DNA from: a virus | Virus record (IMG/VR): IMGVR_UViG_3300045988_153078 | Reading direction: 5' to 3' (one strand) | DNA length: 60,638 nt | Shown here: positions 3,080-60,638 of the stretch, piece after piece | Layout: every line of letters starts with the position of its first letter | Position numbering within the stretch: the stretch's first letter is position 1 | Position numbers and translations under genes: made by a program | The notes under the pieces: model-generated | Told to the model about the DNA's origin: nothing | Seen by the model: only the letters and a program-made list of their open reading frames with translations | Databases searched by the model: none

Positions 3080-3851
3080 TTTTATTTTTTATAGAAGTTT
3101 CTATGAAGCAATAAAGGATCTGCCGAGAGATATTCAGGGTGAGATTTACACGGCTATAATGGAGTATAGCCTATATGGTAATGAAGCTGAGAATCTAAAG
3201 CCGGTCGCTCGTAGTATCTTCACTTTGATAAAACCTCAAATTGATGTCAATAACAAACGTTTTGACAATGGATGTAAGGGTGGAAGACCAAAAAACGATA
3301 ACCAAGAAGAAACCAAGCCAAAACCAAACGATAACCAAGAAGAAACCAAGCCAAAACCTAATTATAATGATAATAAGAATAAGAATGTAAATGAATATAT
3401 CCCCCCTATAATCCCCCAAGGGGATGTAGCACATTCAGACGAGCATCATGAAACGATAGATTATAATGCTCTTATGAATATATTCAATAGGATGTTTGAA
3501 AACAAACTCCCTAGAATATCATCTATGACGGATAAGAGGAAGAAATCTGTAAAAGCAAGGGCTTCCGAACACGGGAAAACATCAATAATGGATGTTTTCA
3601 ACAACGTGGCCCAGTCTGCATTTCTTCTAGGACGCAATAACCAAAATTGGAGATGTGATTTTGATTGGATATTTAAACCGACAAATTTCATAAAAATATT
3701 GGAAGGAAACTATAATGGGACAAGACTTAGTAAAAATCAACAGGATAGCGAGCAGCGAAAACGTGATTCAGTTCTTGCAGTCGCTACAACCGTCAGAGAA
3801 GCTGCCGCAAAAAAGAGAAAGGAACTTGAAGCAGAAGGCGTTATTGAATAA
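3069..3851 (+). CDS. Replication organizer/initiator-like protein
   Basis: N-terminal FIFYRSFYEAIKDLP and C-terminal NWRCDFDWIFKPTNFIKILEGNY resemble phage replisome-organizer termini. Contains a 2 x 33-nt tandem duplication (NDNQEETKPKP). Confidence 0.5.
   Translation: MRDSFIFYRSFYEAIKDLPRDIQGEIYTAIMEYSLYGNEAENLKPVARSIFTLIKPQIDVNNKRFDNGCKGGRPKNDNQEETKPKPNDNQEETKPKPNYNDNKNKNVNEYIPPIIPQGDVAHSDEHHETIDYNALMNIFNRMFENKLPRISSMTDKRKKSVKARASEHGKTSIMDVFNNVAQSAFLLGRNNQNWRCDFDWIFKPTNFIKILEGNYNGTRLSKNQQDSEQRKRDSVLAVATTVREAAAKKRKELEAEGVIE
3294..3359 (+). repeat. Perfect 2 x 33-nt in-frame tandem duplication
   Basis: aacgataaccaagaagaaaccaagccaaaacc repeated head to tail. Confidence 0.9.
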
Positions 3852-4407
3852 ATATCCTGATCCTGCACAATTTATTCTTGATTACAACCCTGATTTGCAA
3901 TTCAAACTTGTCAGATGTAATGCAACTCATTCAGAACTGGCATTGAATGACAGTATTCCAAGCTTAGGGTTATTGTCTTCCACTTACGGAGATGAAACCC
4001 CGATAGAATGGCTAAAGATACAGTTTGGTTCACTGAACGACTTTGCGGAGGTATCGACTAAGATAACAAAAGAACAACTCTCTGAACTATCAGAGATATT
4101 TCTTTCGGAGTATTACTACATCAATACCGCTGAGATTTGCTTTTTTATTGCACGATTCAAGGCCGGCAAGTATGGAAGATTTTACGGAGCAATAGACCCC
4201 ATGAAAATAACAAGTGCGATGTTAGACTACATATCCGAACGAAGAAAGGATATTGAGCGTAAAGAAAGGGAAGAATACAGAATGCAGCGTGAGAAAGAGA
4301 TAGAAGAACGTGGGAATAACAGGATCTCTTATGCTGAATATCAAGAATTGAAACGCCGGGCGGAATCCGGAGATGAAAAAGCCAGAAAAATGCTAATGTC
4401 CTCATGA
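3844..4407 (+). CDS. Hypothetical protein in the replication module; start uncertain
   Basis: The tracked ORF starts at 3715 and would overlap the upstream gene by 137 nt. TTG at 3844 is the first start near the upstream stop. The C-terminus is a charged coiled coil. Confidence 0.5.
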   Translation: MNKYPDPAQFILDYNPDLQFKLVRCNATHSELALNDSIPSLGLLSSTYGDETPIEWLKIQFGSLNDFAEVSTKITKEQLSELSEIFLSEYYYINTAEICFFIARFKAGKYGRFYGAIDPMKITSAMLDYISERRKDIERKEREEYRMQREKEIEERGNNRISYAEYQELKRRAESGDEKARKMLMSS

Positions 4408-5828: not shown

Positions 5829-6266
5829 ATGAAGATAATAGCCAAACAAGATTCAGAGGGTGAGATACTGAAGCAACAGGACGAACTTCTTCTGCGAGAT
5901 TATGAAAGAGCGGTCGCATCCGGTTGCTTCCAAGGCACGCTTGAAGAATTTAAAGAATTTCGGGAAGTTGGCTGCTGGGGAATTATCAGCATGAATCGGG
6001 ACGATTTTTCAGACTTTTCTCAAATCCCTAATGGGTTAGGGGGTGATGCGAACGGTGCTTCTGGTCCTTTGGGGGTAAGCTCCGGATCTGCCTTTATTCT
6101 TGTTCCCCGAGAATGTAAGTATTGTAAGGTAGCTTCTTTCCCTACTCTTGAGATGGCAGAACATTTTGTTTCTGAGAATCCCCACATGACTGATATCGAA
6201 ATTATCACAGAATGTGAATTTGTAAAAGCATATAATGATAGGTTTTATCCATTTAACCGATTATAA
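5829..6266 (+). CDS. Hypothetical protein
   Basis: 145-aa ORF. Confidence 0.55.
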   Translation: MKIIAKQDSEGEILKQQDELLLRDYERAVASGCFQGTLEEFKEFREVGCWGIISMNRDDFSDFSQIPNGLGGDANGASGPLGVSSGSAFILVPRECKYCKVASFPTLEMAEHFVSENPHMTDIEIITECEFVKAYNDRFYPFNRL

Positions 6267-6430: not shown

Positions 6431-6564
6431 AAACATTGATAATTTATAATTCAATAGATGCACCTTTGCAGTATGCAATAGTAGAAGGTGATTATTCTGA
6501 TTTAAACGGAGTCTGTATTAATTCTTTTAATTATCAAGATATAGAAGAAAAATTTAATTCATAA
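6427..6564 (+). CDS. Small hypothetical protein (45 aa)
   Basis: Hand-translated MKTLIIYNSIDAPLQYAIVEGDYSDLNGVCINSFNYQDIEEKFNS. Confidence 0.3.
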   Translation: MKTLIIYNSIDAPLQYAIVEGDYSDLNGVCINSFNYQDIEEKFNS

Positions 6565-6698
6565 CCAACATCAGTTGAGTAAGTGACTCACCCAATCAAC
6601 TTTGAACTAAAAATATTAATTCATTAGAAAACAAGTAATGAGGCAAATCGAGCCTTATAATTCGATAATCGTTCTTTGATGTATTGGATTTACCGCTT

Positions 6699-49780: not shown

Positions 49781-50000
49781 CTTTGTTTGTAAGTGTTTGT
49801 ATAATAGAGTGCTATTGTTAATTGTCTTACTCCCAAACAGGGAGAAGCGTTAATAGTTCGGATTTCTTCGGGTTCACAAAAAAGATAGTCTGTTTTAACT
49901 ATGTTTCTGTTCTGTTATGTATTGACTATCAGTGCTTTATTGTGTAAATGGCTTTAAGGGAAGTGATTTTCCGCTTTTTCTTTTCAATCGTTATACTTGC

Positions 50001-50030
50001 TACTTTTGATTTAAAACGCTACTTTTGTTT
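50001..50030. repeat. Left copy of the 30-bp inverted repeat flanking the integrase gene; holds two ACTTTTGNTT direct sub-repeats
   Basis: 50011-50030 is the exact reverse complement of 51453-51472. Extended to 30 bp, 28 of 30 positions match. Confidence 0.85.
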
Positions 50031-50074: not shown

Positions 50075-51406
50075 ATGGCAACAACATTCAGAATAGAGGC
50101 GTGCTCTTCCAGAAAGAGGCAAGATGGGACATATAATGTGAAGATACGGGTGACTCACAATAGAAAGATAAAAAGGATAGCAACATCAATCTATGTGAAG
50201 AAGGAAGATATGACGAGAGGGATGAAAATAAAAAATCAATCAATCCTTGACGAGCTTAACAAGATTATAGATTCATATCGTTCCAAATGCAATATACTAT
50301 CTTTGTCTATCAATTCCATGTCAATTGAAGAGGTTGTAGAATTTGTAACCAGAGTAGAGGAGGATAAAAAAGACATTGATTTTATACAGTTTGCCCGGGA
50401 GCATATTGAAAAAATGGATGCAGAAGGAAGAAAGGGTACCTCTTCTAATTACAAATGTACTATTAAAGCAATGATAGAATTTACCGGAAGGGAAGTAATC
50501 GGTGTGTCTGAGATAACTTATAAATTCTTAAATGACTTTTCTAAATTTATAATAGAAAAAAAAGAGAAAGCCAACAAAGAAGCTATTGCAAAGGGAAGGA
50601 GAGTAACATCAAATTGCATGTTATGCAAGTATACGTCTTGCATTAGGCATCTATATAATCAAGCAAAACTAAAATATAATGATGAAGAACGTGGAGTGAT
50701 AAGAATCCCATGGGCCCCATTTGCTAAATTTAAAGTACCACGGGAGGAGGTGGCGAGAAAGAGGGCGATACCACCTTTTATAATTAAAATGATAGCAGAT
50801 CTGCCATATAAATACAGAAGTAATATGAGAAAAAGCATAGAACAGAATTGCCGGTATAATTTAGCAAAGGACTGTTTCATATTATCTTTCTGTTTGATAG
50901 GAATGAACTCTGTCGATTTATATAATTGTGATGAATTGAAAGACAATATGATAAAGTACTTTCGTACAAAAACAGCTACAAGAAGGGATGACAAAGCAGA
51001 GATTCATGTAAAGGTAACCCCATTCATAAAAAATCTGATGGAAAAATATGAAGATAAGACAAAGCAGAAAGTTTTTCGGTTTAGCAGAATGTATGTAAAT
51101 CACACCTATTTTAATTCTGCTATAAACCAAGGCCTTAAGGAAATAGAGAAGGATATCAATGCGGAACTGAAACGAATGGGGAAAGATATAGTGATAGATG
51201 ATCTTGAGTTTTATGCTGCCCGTCATTCATGGGCAACTATAGCACGCAATGATTTGAAAATTGATAAGTATGTAGTACATGAAGCTCTAAACCATGTAGA
51301 TAGCAAAATGAAAATCACTGATATTTATATTGAGAAAGATTTCACTATGATTAATGAAGCTAACCGGAAGGTAATCGATTATGTTTTCAATAATCAAATG
51401 ACGTAA
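50075..51406 (+). CDS. int: Tyrosine recombinase / phage integrase
   Basis: C-terminal catalytic region FYAARHSWATIARND...HEALNH...ITDIYIE (R, HxxR, H, Y); a Bacteroides-type long N-terminal arm/SAM-like region. Confidence 0.9.
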   Translation: MATTFRIEACSSRKRQDGTYNVKIRVTHNRKIKRIATSIYVKKEDMTRGMKIKNQSILDELNKIIDSYRSKCNILSLSINSMSIEEVVEFVTRVEEDKKDIDFIQFAREHIEKMDAEGRKGTSSNYKCTIKAMIEFTGREVIGVSEITYKFLNDFSKFIIEKKEKANKEAIAKGRRVTSNCMLCKYTSCIRHLYNQAKLKYNDEERGVIRIPWAPFAKFKVPREEVARKRAIPPFIIKMIADLPYKYRSNMRKSIEQNCRYNLAKDCFILSFCLIGMNSVDLYNCDELKDNMIKYFRTKTATRRDDKAEIHVKVTPFIKNLMEKYEDKTKQKVFRFSRMYVNHTYFNSAINQGLKEIEKDINAELKRMGKDIVIDDLEFYAARHSWATIARNDLKIDKYVVHEALNHVDSKMKITDIYIEKDFTMINEANRKVIDYVFNNQMT

Positions 51407-51452: not shown

Positions 51453-51482
51453 AAACAAAAGTAGCGTTTTAAAACAAAAGTT
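51453..51482. repeat. Right copy of the 30-bp inverted repeat flanking the integrase gene
   Basis: aaacaaaagtagcgttttaaaacaaaagtt. A further direct copy of acttttgttt lies at 51549-51558. Confidence 0.85.
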
Positions 51483-52123: not shown

Positions 52124-52531
52124 TTATACGGCTTCTCTCGTGGATGCTTCTGCTTTGAGGCGTGCATTCTCTAATTGAAGAGCTCTGATTTCTTTGTCTC
52201 TTTGAGATAGTAATTCTTCTGTTTGACGGGTGTATTCTTCCAGCAGCTTTTCGTAAGTGGTTTTATTGGTGATGCGGTTAGATTCAGGTAACTCCTCAGT
52301 AGAAATAAATATGCTACCTCGGCCGGTAATGATATAGTTAGCATTTACATTAGTATAATGAGAGCAAAATGCGCTGATTATATTAAGAGATGCTCCTGAA
52401 ACTCCTCTTCGGATTTGAGATATTCTTTCTTTGGTAATTCCTTTAACGTTATTCCAAATAGAATAATCTGATATTCCCATTACATTTATTATTTCTAAAA
52501 ATCTTTCAGAATATTCATTGTATGCATTCAT
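52124..52531 (-). CDS. CI-like phage repressor (HTH) with a coiled-coil C-terminus
   Basis: FLEIINVMGISDYSIWNNVKGITKERISQIRRG...NANYIITGRGSIF resembles the phage CI repressor HTH family. An operator-bearing divergent region lies upstream. Confidence 0.65.
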   Translation of the reverse strand: MNAYNEYSERFLEIINVMGISDYSIWNNVKGITKERISQIRRGVSGASLNIISAFCSHYTNVNANYIITGRGSIFISTEELPESNRITNKTTYEKLLEEYTRQTEELLSQRDKEIRALQLENARLKAEASTREAV

Positions 52532-52685: not shown

Positions 52686-53032
52686 GTGAATTTGCCTATT
52701 AGGTAGCCTATTACTGTGAAAATTGGAGGAATTATAAATTTATTGTATTCTTTCCACCATTTCCTGTAATATTCCCATACATATCCTCCTGAAGAAATAA
52801 ATTCCGCACCTTTAGCTAATAGGTAGACCTCTATTTCGTCATCCTCAGGGCATACAGGTCCTCTGATATATCGATCTGCTATCATTTCCTTAATTAATCC
52901 TATTTTAGTATACCATTCCAATTTAGATAAATTGCCTCTTTTTATTTTGGTATACTCTAAATTGATTTCTTTTAATATTTTATCTTTCTCTCTACTTTTG
53001 TGATAGAGATGCAATATTCTAGAATTCCACAT
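52682..53032 (-). CDS. C-terminally membrane-anchored protein in the lysogeny module
   Basis: 116 aa; C-terminal FIIPPIFTVIGYLIGKFT. Confidence 0.5.
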   Translation of the reverse strand: MWNSRILHLYHKSREKDKILKEINLEYTKIKRGNLSKLEWYTKIGLIKEMIADRYIRGPVCPEDDEIEVYLLAKGAEFISSGGYVWEYYRKWWKEYNKFIIPPIFTVIGYLIGKFT

Positions 53033-53070
53033 ATAAAGATGTATCGTTAGCTATAATTGTTAAAAAATCA

Positions 53071-53128
53071 TATAGTGATAGTTTTATTCACTTTAAATCT
53101 TGTAGTGAATAAAACTATCACTATCTTT
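53071..53128. promoter_or_regulatory. Perfect 20-bp inverted repeat operator overlapping the rightward early promoter
   Basis: atagtgatagttttattcac (53071-90) and gtgaataaaactatcactat (53104-23), separated by a 13-nt spacer. TAtcTTTG box at 53121-28. Confidence 0.7.
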
Positions 53129-53134
53129 GCATCA

Positions 53135-53692
53135 TCAAAATCAGTATCTCAGTACCGATTTCCAAATATACAAAAGAAATTTGAAAAATCAATTCTGGGG
53201 GACAAGTCTTAAAGGAACTTGGTAGATTTTGATAGCGCTCTTGCATCAGTTTACAGCTTCTCCTTTTTTAGTGAGCGGAACTCTACATTCCGGATGCAGA
53301 CATGTTGGACATCTCCGTGTGAAGATGCACGGTACCGTACAATGGGGCAATCATGCAACTGCCCGAGGGGAAACAGTACGATGGAGTACCCGGCATGATA
53401 ATCGTGAGCGTAATGCGCTGCTTGTAGGTAATGGGAAGCCTTTCACGATGAAAAATAATAATCAGCACAGATTTATGAACTAATGTAAAGCGTCCGATAC
53501 AGTCCTATATGAATCGGTATAAAGTATGTAGTGTTGGGGGCGGCTACACACGCTTAACAAGATATACGAGATCGCCTCGCGTCAGTAGGCGGATTTCCTT
53601 CCCGTAAAATTCGGGCGAAGAAACGTATTGTTGCGTTGAAGGAAACAATTTAAATAGATGGTTATTCGGAAATTCCGAACAACCACCACCAA
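53135..53692 (+). ncRNA. Candidate large structured ncRNA (boundaries approximate)
   Basis: No credible ORF between 53033 and 53918. GC is locally elevated (31 of 60 in 53281-53340 by hand count). Helices include 53401-07 with 53443-49 (closing a three-way junction), hairpin 53660-53684 (9 bp plus 1 mismatch) and hairpin 53598-53620. Confidence 0.4.
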
Positions 53693-53881
53693 GGGATAAA
53701 ATGGTCATAGGGAGCTAAGACTAAATGAACGGAAGTTCCAAGTGTACATAAGAATGGATGTCATCAAGACCGGTGCTGTTAGTAACAGGTTGAGTAGTTT
53801 AAGAATCGTAGGATAACCAATATACGGACGAAAGCGAGAAAGCAGACGATACTTGTGCAGGTTCGAATCCTGCTTATCCCT
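53693..53881 (+). ncRNA. tRNA-like element 2
   Basis: The acceptor gggataa (53693-99) pairs with ttatccc (53874-80). The D-arm-like hairpin is 53703-22, with a GGG loop. A GNRA hairpin gaac-ggaa-gttc occupies 53727-38. The T-arm is canonical: gcagg-ttcgaat-cctgc (53857-73). Confidence 0.45.
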
Positions 53882-53918
53882 CAACCCTTATAGTAATTTA
53901 AAATCATATATAATAACT

Positions 53919-54131
53919 ATGAATAAAATAAGTAAAGCAGCGCTATGCGTGTCGGCAATAATAGTATTATTGGGATATGCCGGAAGTTTTGAATATGCGG
54001 AAGAGATAGTGTACTCTCTTACTGAAAAGCAATATGAAGCGATAAAGAATGATTTAGGAGGCAAAGCAAGTGATAAGCAAATAGCAATGAAATATCAAGA
54101 AAATAAAGAATATTATGACTCGATTAAGTAA
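53919..54131 (+). CDS. Small protein with an N-terminal signal/TM segment (70 aa)
   Basis: MNKISKAALCVSAIIVLLGYAGS... Start moved to ATG 53919, because the tracked start at 53853 would overlap the tRNA-like T-arm. Confidence 0.45.
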   Translation: MNKISKAALCVSAIIVLLGYAGSFEYAEEIVYSLTEKQYEAIKNDLGGKASDKQIAMKYQENKEYYDSIK

Positions 54132-54360
54132 TAAGGAGAAAATTAATAATACAGAAATGATACCTTCAAAAGACAAACCGATCAGTAAAACGATCAATAA
54201 CATGAAAGTTGGGGATGTAGAAAAGTTCCATATCTCTAAGAGCCGATCTGTTAAGAACAGAGTCTATGACTATAATATTGAGCACATTGAAGAGGGCTTC
54301 TTGTGTAAAACGTGTGTCGAAAGGGACAAATTTATTATATGTGTGAAAAGAGAAAAGTAA
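54115..54360 (+). CDS. Hypothetical protein
   Basis: 81-aa ORF. Confidence 0.45.
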   Translation: MTRLSNKEKINNTEMIPSKDKPISKTINNMKVGDVEKFHISKSRSVKNRVYDYNIEHIEEGFLCKTCVERDKFIICVKREK

Positions 54361-54460
54361 ATATACGCCAAGTTCCTTTAAGACTTTGCGTGTTAAGTAG
54401 CCTGTGAAGGTGAACATTGTGAATTTCGTTTTTAACTCGATGTCAGTTTTGCGGCTGACA

Positions 54461-54526
54461 GGGCGGTAAGTATTCTAGGTGAAACGCTGCATATCAGAAA
54501 GACAGGTTCGAATCCTGTACCGTCCA
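54461..54526 (+). ncRNA. tRNA-like element 3: 66 nt with a truncated anticodon arm, G3:U70 and A73
   Basis: The acceptor gggcggt pairs with accgtcc, with g54463 opposite t54523. The D-arm places GG at canonical positions 18-19. The anticodon arm is only 3 bp with a 5-nt loop (54487-97). The T-arm is acagg-ttcgaat-cctgt. Confidence 0.5.
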
Positions 54527-54578: not shown

Positions 54579-54607
54579 CCTGCATCAGGCGTGATGCAGG
54601 CATTTTT
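54579..54607 (+). terminator. Rho-independent terminator
   Basis: cctgcatca-ggcg-tgatgcagg (9-bp stem), followed by cattttt. Confidence 0.8.
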
Positions 54608-54642: not shown

Positions 54643-54942
54643 ATGAAAGTGACGCTGGATTTATACCAATTGAAGAATATAATATCTGATATGGTGCAAG
54701 TAGGGTATATGAATGCGGTGAAATGCTATGAACCGACAAAAGATAGCATCAGTAGGAGAGAAGTGGCCAGATGGTTTGTCAATATGAATTTGGATACCGA
54801 GCTTATACGGCAAATGGAGGATGTGGGGTTGATCAAGGGTAAACGAAAAGGTTCCGGCCGAAATTCTCCTATCTATTATTCGAAAGCGGAAATAAAGCAA
54901 GCTTTATGTACAATACAAATGAATAAGTATATTAACGTATAG
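54643..54942 (+). CDS. HTH protein, possible excisionase/early regulator
   Basis: SISRREVARWFVNMNLDTELIRQMEDVGLIKGKR...IYYSKAEIKQAL resembles excisionase-type HTH proteins. Confidence 0.35.
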   Translation: MKVTLDLYQLKNIISDMVQVGYMNAVKCYEPTKDSISRREVARWFVNMNLDTELIRQMEDVGLIKGKRKGSGRNSPIYYSKAEIKQALCTIQMNKYINV

Positions 54943-55249: not shown

Positions 55250-55873
55250 ATGGACGGATTAAATTTATATCAAAAGATACAGGCTGTTTCCAACGAGGTA
55301 AAGAACATCGAAAAAAATATGACCGTTGGTGCCGGTAGTTATGCCTATAAGGCTGTCCAGGATATAGATGTTACTCTTTGTGTGAAAGATGCCGAAACGA
55401 AATACGGTATAGTAAGTATTCCGGTTAAGCAAGAATTGATTAAATCAGAGGTGATAAGAACTATAAAAAAAGAAAATATAGAATCTATCACTTATGCTGA
55501 TATCGTTAAGATGACTGTAAGGATCATCAATCTTGATAAACCAGAGGAATATATAGAGGTTGAAAGTTTCGGGCGTGGGCTTGACAGCGGAGATAAGGGA
55601 TTTGGCAAGGCTTCTACTTATGCAAGAAAATATGCTTTACTAAACGCATATAAAATAGCAACGGGTGAAGATCCGGATGATGTAAAATCAAAAGAGATGC
55701 TTGCGATGAAAACACTTGATGAAAAAAGAGTTATAGTGAGCAATTTCCTTTTATCTGATAATAACAAATGCACCAGTTTTCTTCAGCGGTTCAACAAAGG
55801 TTCTATTGAGGAACTTGATGCGAAAGAGATTGAAATGATTTATGACGGTATGAGAAAGAGAGGTATTGTATGA
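55250..55873 (+). CDS. erf: ERF-family single-strand annealing protein
   Basis: YKAVQDIDV... and GFGKASTYARKYALLNAYKIATGEDPDD. Confidence 0.75.
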   Translation: MDGLNLYQKIQAVSNEVKNIEKNMTVGAGSYAYKAVQDIDVTLCVKDAETKYGIVSIPVKQELIKSEVIRTIKKENIESITYADIVKMTVRIINLDKPEEYIEVESFGRGLDSGDKGFGKASTYARKYALLNAYKIATGEDPDDVKSKEMLAMKTLDEKRVIVSNFLLSDNNKCTSFLQRFNKGSIEELDAKEIEMIYDGMRKRGIV

Positions 55874-59930: not shown

Positions 59931-60638
59931 ATGAAAACATTCGAAGAACTGAAAGAAGACCTATTAACCCGCGCTAAAAATGCAGGAGCGTGCCAAAGAG
60001 GTTATGCAATGGGATTAAGAAGCGAAACTAAAGCTGACTTACTGATAGCTATTACCGAAAATTGGTTTTGGGTATTTAGGGACGAAAAAATAGTTGATGC
60101 TGAATACTTGGAAGATAATTTTACCGAAGAAGAATTATTGCAAGCTGGTATTTACATCCGAGGCATACATAAGGTTAAAACTTCTTCATTTGCCTTCGGC
60201 AGCGCAACGGTGGAAGCCTACGGCAGCGCAACGGTGGAAGCCTACGGCAGCGCAACGGTGAAAGCCTGCGGCAGCGCAACGGTGGAAGCCTACGGCAGCG
60301 CAACGGTGAAAGCCTACGACAGCGCAACGGTGAAAGCCTACGACAGCGCAACGGTGAAAGCCTGCGGCAGCGCAACGGTGGAAGCCTACGACAGCGCAAC
60401 GGTGGAAGCCTGCGGCAGCGCAACGGTGAAAGCCTACGACAGCGCAACGGTGGAAGCCTACGGCAGCGCAACGGTGGAAGCCTACGACAGCGCAACGGTG
60501 GAAGCCTACGGCAGCGCAACGGTGGAAGCCTACGACAGCGCAACGGTGGAAGCCTACGGCAGCGCAACGGTGGAAGCCTACGACAGCGCAACGGTGGAAG
60601 CCTACGGCAGCGCAACGGTGGAAGCCTACGGCAGCGCA
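59931..60638 (+). CDS. Octapeptide-repeat protein, N-terminal part (open at the window end; continues at 2-178)
   Basis: ATG 59931. A unique N-domain of 89 aa is followed by 18 full (G/D)SATV(E/K)A(Y/C) units. There is no stop before 60638, and 708 nt is exactly 236 codons. Confidence 0.8.
   Translation, partial: MKTFEELKEDLLTRAKNAGACQRGYAMGLRSETKADLLIAITENWFWVFRDEKIVDAEYLEDNFTEEELLQAGIYIRGIHKVKTSSFAFGSATVEAYGSATVEAYGSATVKACGSATVEAYGSATVKAYDSATVKAYDSATVKACGSATVEAYDSATVEACGSATVKAYDSATVEAYGSATVEAYDSATVEAYGSATVEAYDSATVEAYGSATVEAYDSATVEAYGSATVEAYGSA
60192..60638 (+). repeat. 24-nt tandem repeat array, about 18.6 units
   Basis: The unit is gcctacggcagcgcaacggtggaa. The only variation among units is G/A at three fixed positions. 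Confidence 0.95.

Follow-up and report, generated by a model that had tools for sequence, protein, structure and literature searches.

A candidate structured RNA on an invertible DNA segment of a temperate Bacteroides fragilis phage

The early region of the temperate phage represented by IMG/VR virus record IMGVR_UViG_3300045988_153078, a stretch of 60,638 nucleotides (nt) hereafter called the window, contains a block free of credible open reading frames (ORFs) that appears to encode a structured non-coding RNA (ncRNA). From the comparison of sequences, we conclude that this is a real and undescribed structured RNA, located in an invertible cassette of a widespread Bacteroides fragilis prophage. 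The region is non-coding, with helices that are maintained by compensatory change; the DNA segment that carries it inverts exactly and often, and the adjoining cassette is variable (Table 1). The complete reading that we propose, and consider fairly probable, is that of an early-transcribed stable RNA of a temperate B. fragilis phage that would be freed at tRNA-like elements and turned on and off by DNA inversion.

An earlier note on this DNA, made from the letters of the window alone, had proposed 53135-53692 as a candidate large structured ncRNA that lies behind an early promoter and runs into a tRNA-like element. Comparison with relatives supports an RNA at this place, but one smaller than the claimed block: the conserved RNA measures about 350 nt in the lineage of the window but only about 225 nt where it is most reduced. 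The note overlooked the invertible setting of the block and the swappable nature of the tRNA-like module, and its arguments from the GC content and the helices of a single sequence are weak when taken alone.

Compensated helices in three phage lineages

Close relatives of the window are 97-100% identical to it and hence little informative. Diverged counterparts of the block are present in lineage S (contigs L067 and L076), with 78-79% identity across 53337-53644, and in lineage T (L077 and L089), where only the core is found; the lineage of the window is denoted W. When four core patterns were used to scan contigs of viruses and metagenomes, only these three lineages were recovered. Pattern matches in L074, L084, L088, L090 and L091 are chance occurrences in GC-rich coding DNA.

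Eleven helices can be written for the window RNA, among them those of two three-way junctions, and were recovered in the other lineages by string search. From 5' to 3', the RNA would consist of a hairpin or pseudoknot, junction A, an A-rich linker, three hairpins and junction B. Compensated changes are present in helices H2, H5, H6, H7 and H8. The closing stem of junction A, H2, reads ATCGTGA/TCACGAT in the window, ATCGCGA/TCGCGAT in S and AACGGA/TCCGTT in T; the three-way junction of the earlier note, in which this 7-base-pair (bp) stem encloses two hairpins, is thereby borne out by compensated changes in relatives. The closing stem of junction B, H8, is likewise found in three complementary versions (TTTCCTT/AAGGAAA in the window, TTCCCTT/AAGGGAA in S, TTCCCGC/GCGGGAA in T), as is H5 (CCGAT/ATCGG, CCGATA/TATCGG and CGCGC/GCGCG, respectively). 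H6 has a G-C pair in the window that is A-U in S, and H7 changes from CGCCT/AGGCG in the window to TGCTC/GAGCG in S, with two compensated pairs and two G-U substitutions; both helices are absent in T. All substitutions between W and S that were placed in H2, H6 and H7 preserve pairing, and loop or junction sequences such as GAGCGTAATGCGCTGCTTGTAGG are identical in all three lineages while the surrounding stems change.

Covariation, which the earlier note had named as a check on its proposal, was assessed in these helices by counting pairs against slid partners and shuffles. In the 3' domain, 94.1% of the cells are paired; sliding the partners lowers this to 31-49%. Both sides have changed in 12 pairs, compared with 1-3 for slid partners and 2.6 +/- 1.3 for shuffled sequences, none of the 500 shuffles reaching 12. 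In junction A, represented by four distinct sequences, the paired fraction is 92.3% against 25-67% with slid partners. Two covariance models built from the structure-fitted alignments match the three lineages only, with 80-102 bits for the model of junction A (R1). Taken together, the comparison of the three lineages argues that the helices are kept by compensatory change, with support that is good but not final. The context suggests that the RNA is read from the + strand.

The 5' hairpin has a stem of 5 bp in lineage W, which is shortened to 4 bp in L067 and L076. Its loop (53350-56, ATCATGC) could pair with 53393-99 (GCATGAT), making a possible pseudoknot; this 7-bp pairing is invariant and therefore provides no covariation test. 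Toward the 3' end, the earlier note had drawn a bulged hairpin with a 7-nt loop at 53598-620, of which the core CCCG-TAAAATT-CGGG (53601-53615) is conserved, whereas relatives do not preserve the bulged extension and instead keep a long-range stem, 53594-600 / 53639-45. Another hairpin that had been counted as part of the RNA (53660-84) belongs to the variable cassette and is missing from many close relatives.

Lack of a conserved reading frame and of a known RNA family

As noted earlier, 53033-53918, which is bounded by a leftward gene of 116 amino acids (aa) and a rightward ORF of 70 aa, contains no credible ORF but only short ones, mostly without an ATG start. Those within the block include an 84-aa ORF with a TTG start (53229-53483) and an antisense 61-aa ORF with a GTG start (53283-53468). 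The 84-aa ORF is hit by a 1-nt indel among haplotypes that are 97-100% identical, and the stop-free frames are not the same in W, in T and in the two sequences of S; we therefore consider the region non-coding. The same comparison of frames between lineages, which addresses the conserved reading frame that would have spoken for a protein, found none across 53135-53918, and gene callers placed no + strand gene on the block in 10 assemblies. A six-frame translation of 53200-53700, submitted as one concatenated query against 5.8 billion proteins, gave no match, yet this search also missed the 61-aa antisense ORF that the collection contains; this negative result is therefore unreliable, and we rely on the frame comparison instead. 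Several B. fragilis genomes in GenBank list the 61-aa antisense ORF as a hypothetical protein, which is probably a mis-annotation.

The elevated GC content to which the earlier note pointed is real locally (0.44-0.48 in 200-nt windows, against 0.22-0.36 in the flanks) but not overall. The GC content is 42.8% for 53135-53692 and 38.1% for the whole window, and because 14% of windows of the same size equal or exceed the block in GC content, the enrichment is local and not exceptional.

A search of the whole window with Rfam 15 at gathering thresholds gave no match, and at E<=10 the interval 52900-54100 matched only microRNA families, by chance, at the operator palindrome, and the tRNA family with 14.9 bits (53788-53881). 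In neither mode was there a match to the families named earlier, namely, GOLLD, ROOL, tmRNA and group I intron, so that this part of the earlier proposal is not supported. Other ribozymes likewise lack an Rfam match, and the block as a degenerate tRNA array or pseudogene is unsupported by either Rfam or the frame comparison. A blastn search against 50,697 GenBank phages found nothing. Since no Rfam 15 family matches, the RNA is considered undescribed; judging by all these searches, it belongs to no described family and is narrowly distributed.

An invertible segment found in both orientations

The inverted repeats that bound the segment carrying the RNA are 100% complementary over 19 bp and lie 1,145 nt apart; the repeat occurs in two copies only in the window at up to 3 mismatches, with 0.01 expected. 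Among 37 distinct related contigs, the segment is flipped in 18 and unflipped in 19, the inversion being exact relative to both flanks. Both orientations are also found in chromosomal contigs of 0.2-5.6 Mb, six of ten such contigs being flipped and four unflipped. The flipped L007 and the unflipped L011 share five identical single-nucleotide polymorphisms and hence represent one haplotype in two orientations, and the inversion is seen with both cassette types (L095). The segment shares with invertons that it is bounded by repeats, that both orientations exist in nature and that the breakpoints fall within the repeats. Given the same haplotype in two states, the involvement of both cassette types and the many contigs in either orientation, switching must be recent and frequent, which indicates a site-specific recombinase.

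No invertase was found within or beside the segment. The 19-bp repeat has only 11 single chance matches in GTDB genomes, all in unrelated organisms, and among viral contigs paired copies of its 17-bp core are confined to this phage lineage; a literature search for the repeat sequence found nothing. One class of B. fragilis inverted repeats has the form AGTTC-N5-GAACT, and the repeat here reads AAGTTC-CTTTA-AGACTT. In B. fragilis, a distant master recombinase flips many regions (PMC5903667). The recombinase of the segment described here would be trans-acting and probably host-encoded.

The diverged lineages S and T have no inverted repeats, and in them the block is oriented as the neighbouring ORFs and tRNA-like elements are. 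What precedes the block in S and T is left over from a T arm and acceptor end, and in all three lineages it is flanked by tRNA-like elements or by 3' remnants of such elements.

tRNA-like elements and the variable cassette

The tRNA-like module that the earlier note had placed at 53693 does begin there. It is the 188-nt TLS1, which scores only 14.9 bits against Rfam tRNA. When 6 variants of it are folded together by RNAalifold, 45 pairs result; compensatory change is seen in 10, including pairs of the acceptor and T stems. The same 188-nt RNA is also found by itself in a number of unrelated phage contexts, sometimes directly after a tRNA gene. The slot that holds most of TLS1 is a hot spot of swapping among close relatives: it is refilled by an 84-nt tRNA-like gene in L014, L018, L019, L021, L028, L029, L093, L095 and L097, and in L027 a 118-aa ORF (3778-4134) takes its place. 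The 84-nt gene (L014 1809-1892, L029 1177-1260) has the acceptor GGGCGGT/ACCGTCC, with G3:U70, and an 8-nt anticodon loop. G3:U70 is the alanine identity pair. The short element TLS2, outside the invertible segment, has counterparts in L067 (~6515-6590, - strand) and L076 that keep this pair and compensate the fourth acceptor pair; its counterpart in L045 (4623-4691) scores 45 bits against Rfam tRNA.

ARAGORN found neither a tRNA nor a tmRNA in the window. A tmRNA is ruled out, as both ARAGORN and Rfam lack a match; TLS1 has G3-C70, and TLS2 has G3:U70 but comprises only 66 nt. The notion that a tRNA-like 3' end serves as the phage attachment site is ruled out as well, given a prophage junction upstream of the integrase gene, near 49830, where phage and host sequences diverge in chromosomal contigs.

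Promoter, operator and terminator-like sites

The operator-linked promoter described in the earlier note ahead of the block is recovered as TATCTTTG at 53122-53129, overlapping a perfect 21-bp palindrome that, from its sequence, is likely to be a repressor operator. This is the sole consensus TAnnTTTG on the + strand between 53122 and 59724. Apart from the terminator-like hairpin upstream of the ORF at 54643, a - strand hairpin at 53687-53657, which is part of the variable cassette, scans as terminator-like.

Table 1. Features of the early region around the structured RNA, and occurrences of the 188-nt RNA in other contigs
Feature	Position	Strand	Remarks
Perfect 21-bp palindrome	53072..53124 (arms 53072-53092 / 53104-53124)		arms 100% complementary; local folding z -6 to -7
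Bacteroidota-type -7 box TATCTTTG	53122..53129	+	consensus TAnnTTTG
Invertible DNA segment, 1,183 bp	53204..54386		carries RNA, tRNA-like cassette, ORF70 and ORF81
Left inverted repeat AAGTCTTAAAGGAACTTGG	53204..53222		left crossover site; inversion breakpoints of relatives fall exactly here
Conserved structured ncRNA (candidate)	53296..53650	+ in window orientation	homologous in lineage S, partly in lineage T
5' domain	53345..53399	+	hairpin 53345-49 / 53360-64
Three-way junction A	53401..53449	+	closing stem 53401-07 / 53443-49 (H2); hairpin 53408-18; second hairpin within 53420-41
A-rich linker between junctions	53450..53493	+	starts GAAAAATAA, includes CAGCACAGAT; both common to lineage T
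Three hairpins	53494..53591	+	H5 53494-98 / 53513-17; H6 53524-32 / 53543-51; H7 53573-77 / 53587-91
Three-way junction B	53594..53645	+	closing stem 53594-600 / 53639-45 (H8); hairpin 53601-15 (7-nt loop); hairpin 53622-37
Variable cassette slot	53648..53860	+	here hairpin 53657-87 and most of TLS1
TLS1, 188-nt tRNA-like RNA	53693..53880	+	acceptor stem, two arms, long arm of variable length, T arm with GGTTCGAATCC
ORF70, 70 aa	53919..54131	+	N-terminal hydrophobic segment
ORF81, 81 aa	54115..54360	+	
Right inverted repeat CCAAGTTCCTTTAAGACTT	54368..54386		19 bp
TLS2, short tRNA-like element	54461..54526	+	66 nt; G3:U70 acceptor pair, T arm, reduced anticodon arm; outside invertible segment
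Terminator-like hairpin, then CATTTTTC	54579..54600	+	between TLS2 and next ORF (54643)
188-nt RNA elsewhere	L004 401-612; L005 14165-14376; L010 10829-11040; L012 913-1124; L036 5724-5887; L046 4464-4657; L050 8724-8917		

A proposed mechanism and its alternatives

In the orientation of the window, the RNA would be the first element of a transcript that starts at the operator-overlapped early promoter and is shared by the RNA, TLS1, ORF70, ORF81 and TLS2. Enzymes of tRNA processing, among them RNase P acting immediately 5' of G53693, would cut this transcript at the tRNA-like elements and free a discrete stable RNA. Site-specific recombination between the 19-bp repeats would flip the segment, such that sense products come from one orientation only, whereas in the flipped state the early transcript would cross the cassette antisense, with a putative on/off effect. 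The flipped state would place 1.2 kb of antisense sequence in the early leader, together with a terminator-like hairpin in the cassette type of the window.

Several observations weigh against this scenario. The folding energy of 53130-53900 is within chance (z = -1.05 for the + strand and -1.93 for the - strand), and locally z is about 0 for 53150-53500, with a modest signal of about -2.2 for 53500-53700. The independent covariation events are few, because there are three lineages only and the alignments were fitted to the structure. Furthermore, the pair counts are alike on both strands (94.1% vs 93.5% and 92.3% vs 94.2%), G-U pairs do not assign the strand, and the block is not conserved above the neighbouring genes (78% vs 79-85% identity). 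ARAGORN does not accept the tRNA-like elements as tRNAs. As for the inversion, about 50 ORFs scanned in the window include no recombinase other than the tyrosine integrase (50075-51406), and there is no resemblance between the 19-bp repeats and the sequence of the prophage junction near 49830.

An alternative that we regard as unlikely is that the folded RNA acts in cis as an early-operon leader, for example, by processive antitermination similar to that of the put RNAs of HK022 or of EAR, with read-through by RNA polymerase at 54579-54600 into the early genes, in which case flipping would gate the lytic programme. This option draws on the location of the block downstream of the sole consensus early promoter, with no further + strand TAnnTTTG before 59724, and on the terminator-like site between the cassette and the next ORFs, along with the one on the - strand (53687-53657) that would be met in the flipped state. 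However, in S and T the block sits behind two or three ORFs, away from the promoter, and because of this location in other lineages, a role in read-through at 54579-54600 is possible but not favoured. Moreover, the - strand terminator-like hairpin is a variable cassette part missing in many relatives, an ORF comes straight after the block in T with no terminator seen, and the size of about 350 nt is several times that of put and EAR.

It is very unlikely, in our assessment, that the helices act in the DNA, as hairpins of single-stranded DNA or protein-binding sites that serve as a replication or packaging signal or as an accessory site of inversion. The equally good pair counts on both strands are compatible with such a role, as is the place of the block within the invertible segment, near replication and recombination genes (ERF at 55250); yet, a pair of three-way junctions whose closing stems are compensated is typical of RNA, the block keeps the direction of the flanking transcription units, and an inversion accessory is excluded by the conservation of the block in S and T, which have no inverted repeats. 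A similarly low standing is assigned to the view that the block is a non-functional spacer or decayed sequence in which covariation arises from chance and alignment fitting. The folding z near 0, the availability of three lineages only, the unexceptional GC content and an identity no higher than that of neighbouring genes all fit a spacer, but the pairing kept by the W-to-S substitutions in H2, H6 and H7, the three complementary versions each of H2, H5 and H8, the drop to 31-49% paired with slid partners and the identity of loops such as GAGCGTAATGCGCTGCTTGTAGG amid changing stems do not. Least credible of all is that the interval encodes a small protein, for which the antisense 61-aa ORF is the candidate. 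The exact sequence of this ORF is in the protein collection under B. fragilis accessions, and it was called as a gene in L093, L097, L098 and L100; against this, it starts with GTG, its cluster has only 4 members, all from this phage, its frame stops early in L076, the open frame in T is in another register, and indels of 1-2 nt between lineages fall within the ORF.

Relatives with a different block at the same position

Phages that encode a 67% identical version of a 99-aa protein neighbouring the block share the layout of the region: a promoter and small ORFs come with an ORF-free block of about 420 nt, followed by a variable tRNA-like cassette, a small membrane ORF and a tRNA-like element that has G3:U70. 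In the L045 group of such phages, the block contains the Rfam motif DUF2693-FD (RF02926), which is detected in L032, L034, L036, L045 and L050 at 56-78 bits (threshold 44.5). The blocks of the window and of this group show no homology in nhmmer comparison, and the two covariance models do not match the L045-group loci. This genomic position thus seems to host folded RNAs of different origin.

In L045 (3790-4215) and the same region of L032-L050, the first 150-180 nt are nearly invariant and the flanks are 75-78% identical; the DUF2693-FD motif may be part of a larger RNA in this group. The motif CCTGTGAAGGWGAAC is found at 54402-54416, just past the right repeat, and in L067 it occurs near 6650, after the block, and again near 6190 (- strand); CTGTGAAGATAG, which is similar to it, sits in a hairpin of the L045 group.

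Comparison with known systems

GOLLD (RF01998) and ROOL (RF03087) are multi-helix ncRNAs that are often found in prophages near tRNA genes and are possibly co-transcribed with them (PMC5737381). The window RNA resembles them in having multiple helices, in its location in a B. fragilis prophage and in being flanked by tRNA-like elements, but it has no Rfam match even at E<=10, is about 350 nt long and belongs to a Bacteroidota host; its neighbours are atypical tRNA-like elements rather than standard tRNAs, and it sits on an invertible segment. ROOL measures about 580 nt and GOLLD about 800 nt. DUF2693-FD is comparable in place, being located in relatives downstream of the early promoter, within the ORF-free block that precedes the variable tRNA-like cassette, and its 7-bp closing stem with two hairpins (49 nt) resembles junction B of the window (52 nt). 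The differences are that cmscan finds no match to it in the window at E<=10, that the conserved nucleotides differ and that the blocks lack nhmmer similarity. In MALAT1-mascRNA, similarly to the arrangement in the window, an RNA lies directly ahead of a tRNA-like structure that could set its 3' end; that RNase P system, however, is eukaryotic.

Invertible segments with short inverted repeats, both orientations of which coexist in a population, are known in other phages, namely, the G segment of Mu and the C segment of P1, inverted by Gin and Cin. The window segment is similarly repeat-bounded, occurs in a temperate phage and is found in both orientations. The Mu and P1 segments, however, switch tail-fibre genes and adjoin a serine invertase gene, whereas the cargo of the segment described here, located in the early region, is an RNA, a tRNA-like element and two small ORFs, with no invertase found nearby. 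Another parallel might be the invertible region Q of B. fragilis NCTC 9343 (Cerdeno-Tarraga et al. 2005, as described by Patrick et al.). It lies inside a putative phage-associated region, and its inversion makes two genes for hypothetical proteins run with or against the transcription around them (PMC3090145). This description, on which the comparison depends, fits 53204-54386 with ORF70 and ORF81; it includes no RNA in its account of the region, and no contig of NCTC 9343 size was seen to encode the exact ORF70 and ORF81 proteins. Region Q probably represents a switch of this kind and is possibly this very switch.

The phage genome and its host

The tyrosine integrase gene and the gene for a cI-like regulator (52124-52531, - strand) identify the window as a temperate phage. 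The further genes include those for an ERF recombinase, NinG, a helicase, the terminase subunits, a prohead protease, a holin, an amidase and anti-repressors. The large terminase is at most 45% identical to that of any GenBank phage, and the nearest named phages infect Flavobacterium. Judging by the B. fragilis annotations on the small ORFs adjoining the block, the host is B. fragilis. Identical copies of the neighbouring 99-aa protein are present in 1,788 blocks of a public assembly collection, including B. fragilis assemblies in NCBI and chromosomal contigs of up to 5.6 Mb. The exact sequence of ORF70, a member of a protein cluster of 53, is found on 700 contigs and annotated as a B. fragilis hypothetical protein; searches of Pfam and PHROG with ORF70 gave no match.

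Outside the immediate surroundings of the block, the integrase gene is flanked by a 29-nt inverted match (49999-50027 and 51453-51481) that may comprise arm-type binding sites. In some relatives, NinG is 444 aa long, with weak matches to the Pfam intein domains Hint and Intein_splicing (L094 11877-12300, L095 10630-11964, L100 12093-12300), and the copy in the window has 159 aa. Some relatives have NUMOD4/HNH_3 homing-endonuclease genes in the early region (L093 8329-8943; L097 12063-12300; L101 11979-12300), and others lack them. A tandem repeat at 60192-60638, with 18.6 copies of a 24-nt unit and 94% matches, overlaps the - strand ORF 60175-60615 and continues past the end of the window.

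Significance

An undescribed folded RNA and a 188-nt tRNA-like RNA would be added here to the few RNAs known from phages of gut Bacteroidota. Both lie on DNA that inverts within the early region of a temperate phage, whereas the classic inversions of Mu and P1 concern tail fibres. Inversions across viral genomes have recently been proposed from metagenomes (PMC13501310), and the inversion itself may have been noted already in 2005; we found no description of the RNA content of the invertible segment in the literature. The swapping of tRNA-like genes in the cassette hints that the phage contends with tRNA-directed functions of the host. Given that the phage is widespread, as indicated by the spread of the 99-aa protein, the system should be open to experiment.

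Going further, we regard it as a long shot that the segment is a heritable switch in the leader of the early operon, one orientation of which would make the folded RNA, acting on transcription or on tRNA-related host defences, along with the tRNA-like RNA, while the other would leave the early transcript blocked or unprocessed. If that were the case, clonal lysogens would differ in whether and how the prophage enters lytic growth, and control of both an ncRNA and the developmental programme of a phage through inversional phase variation would be seen for the first time.

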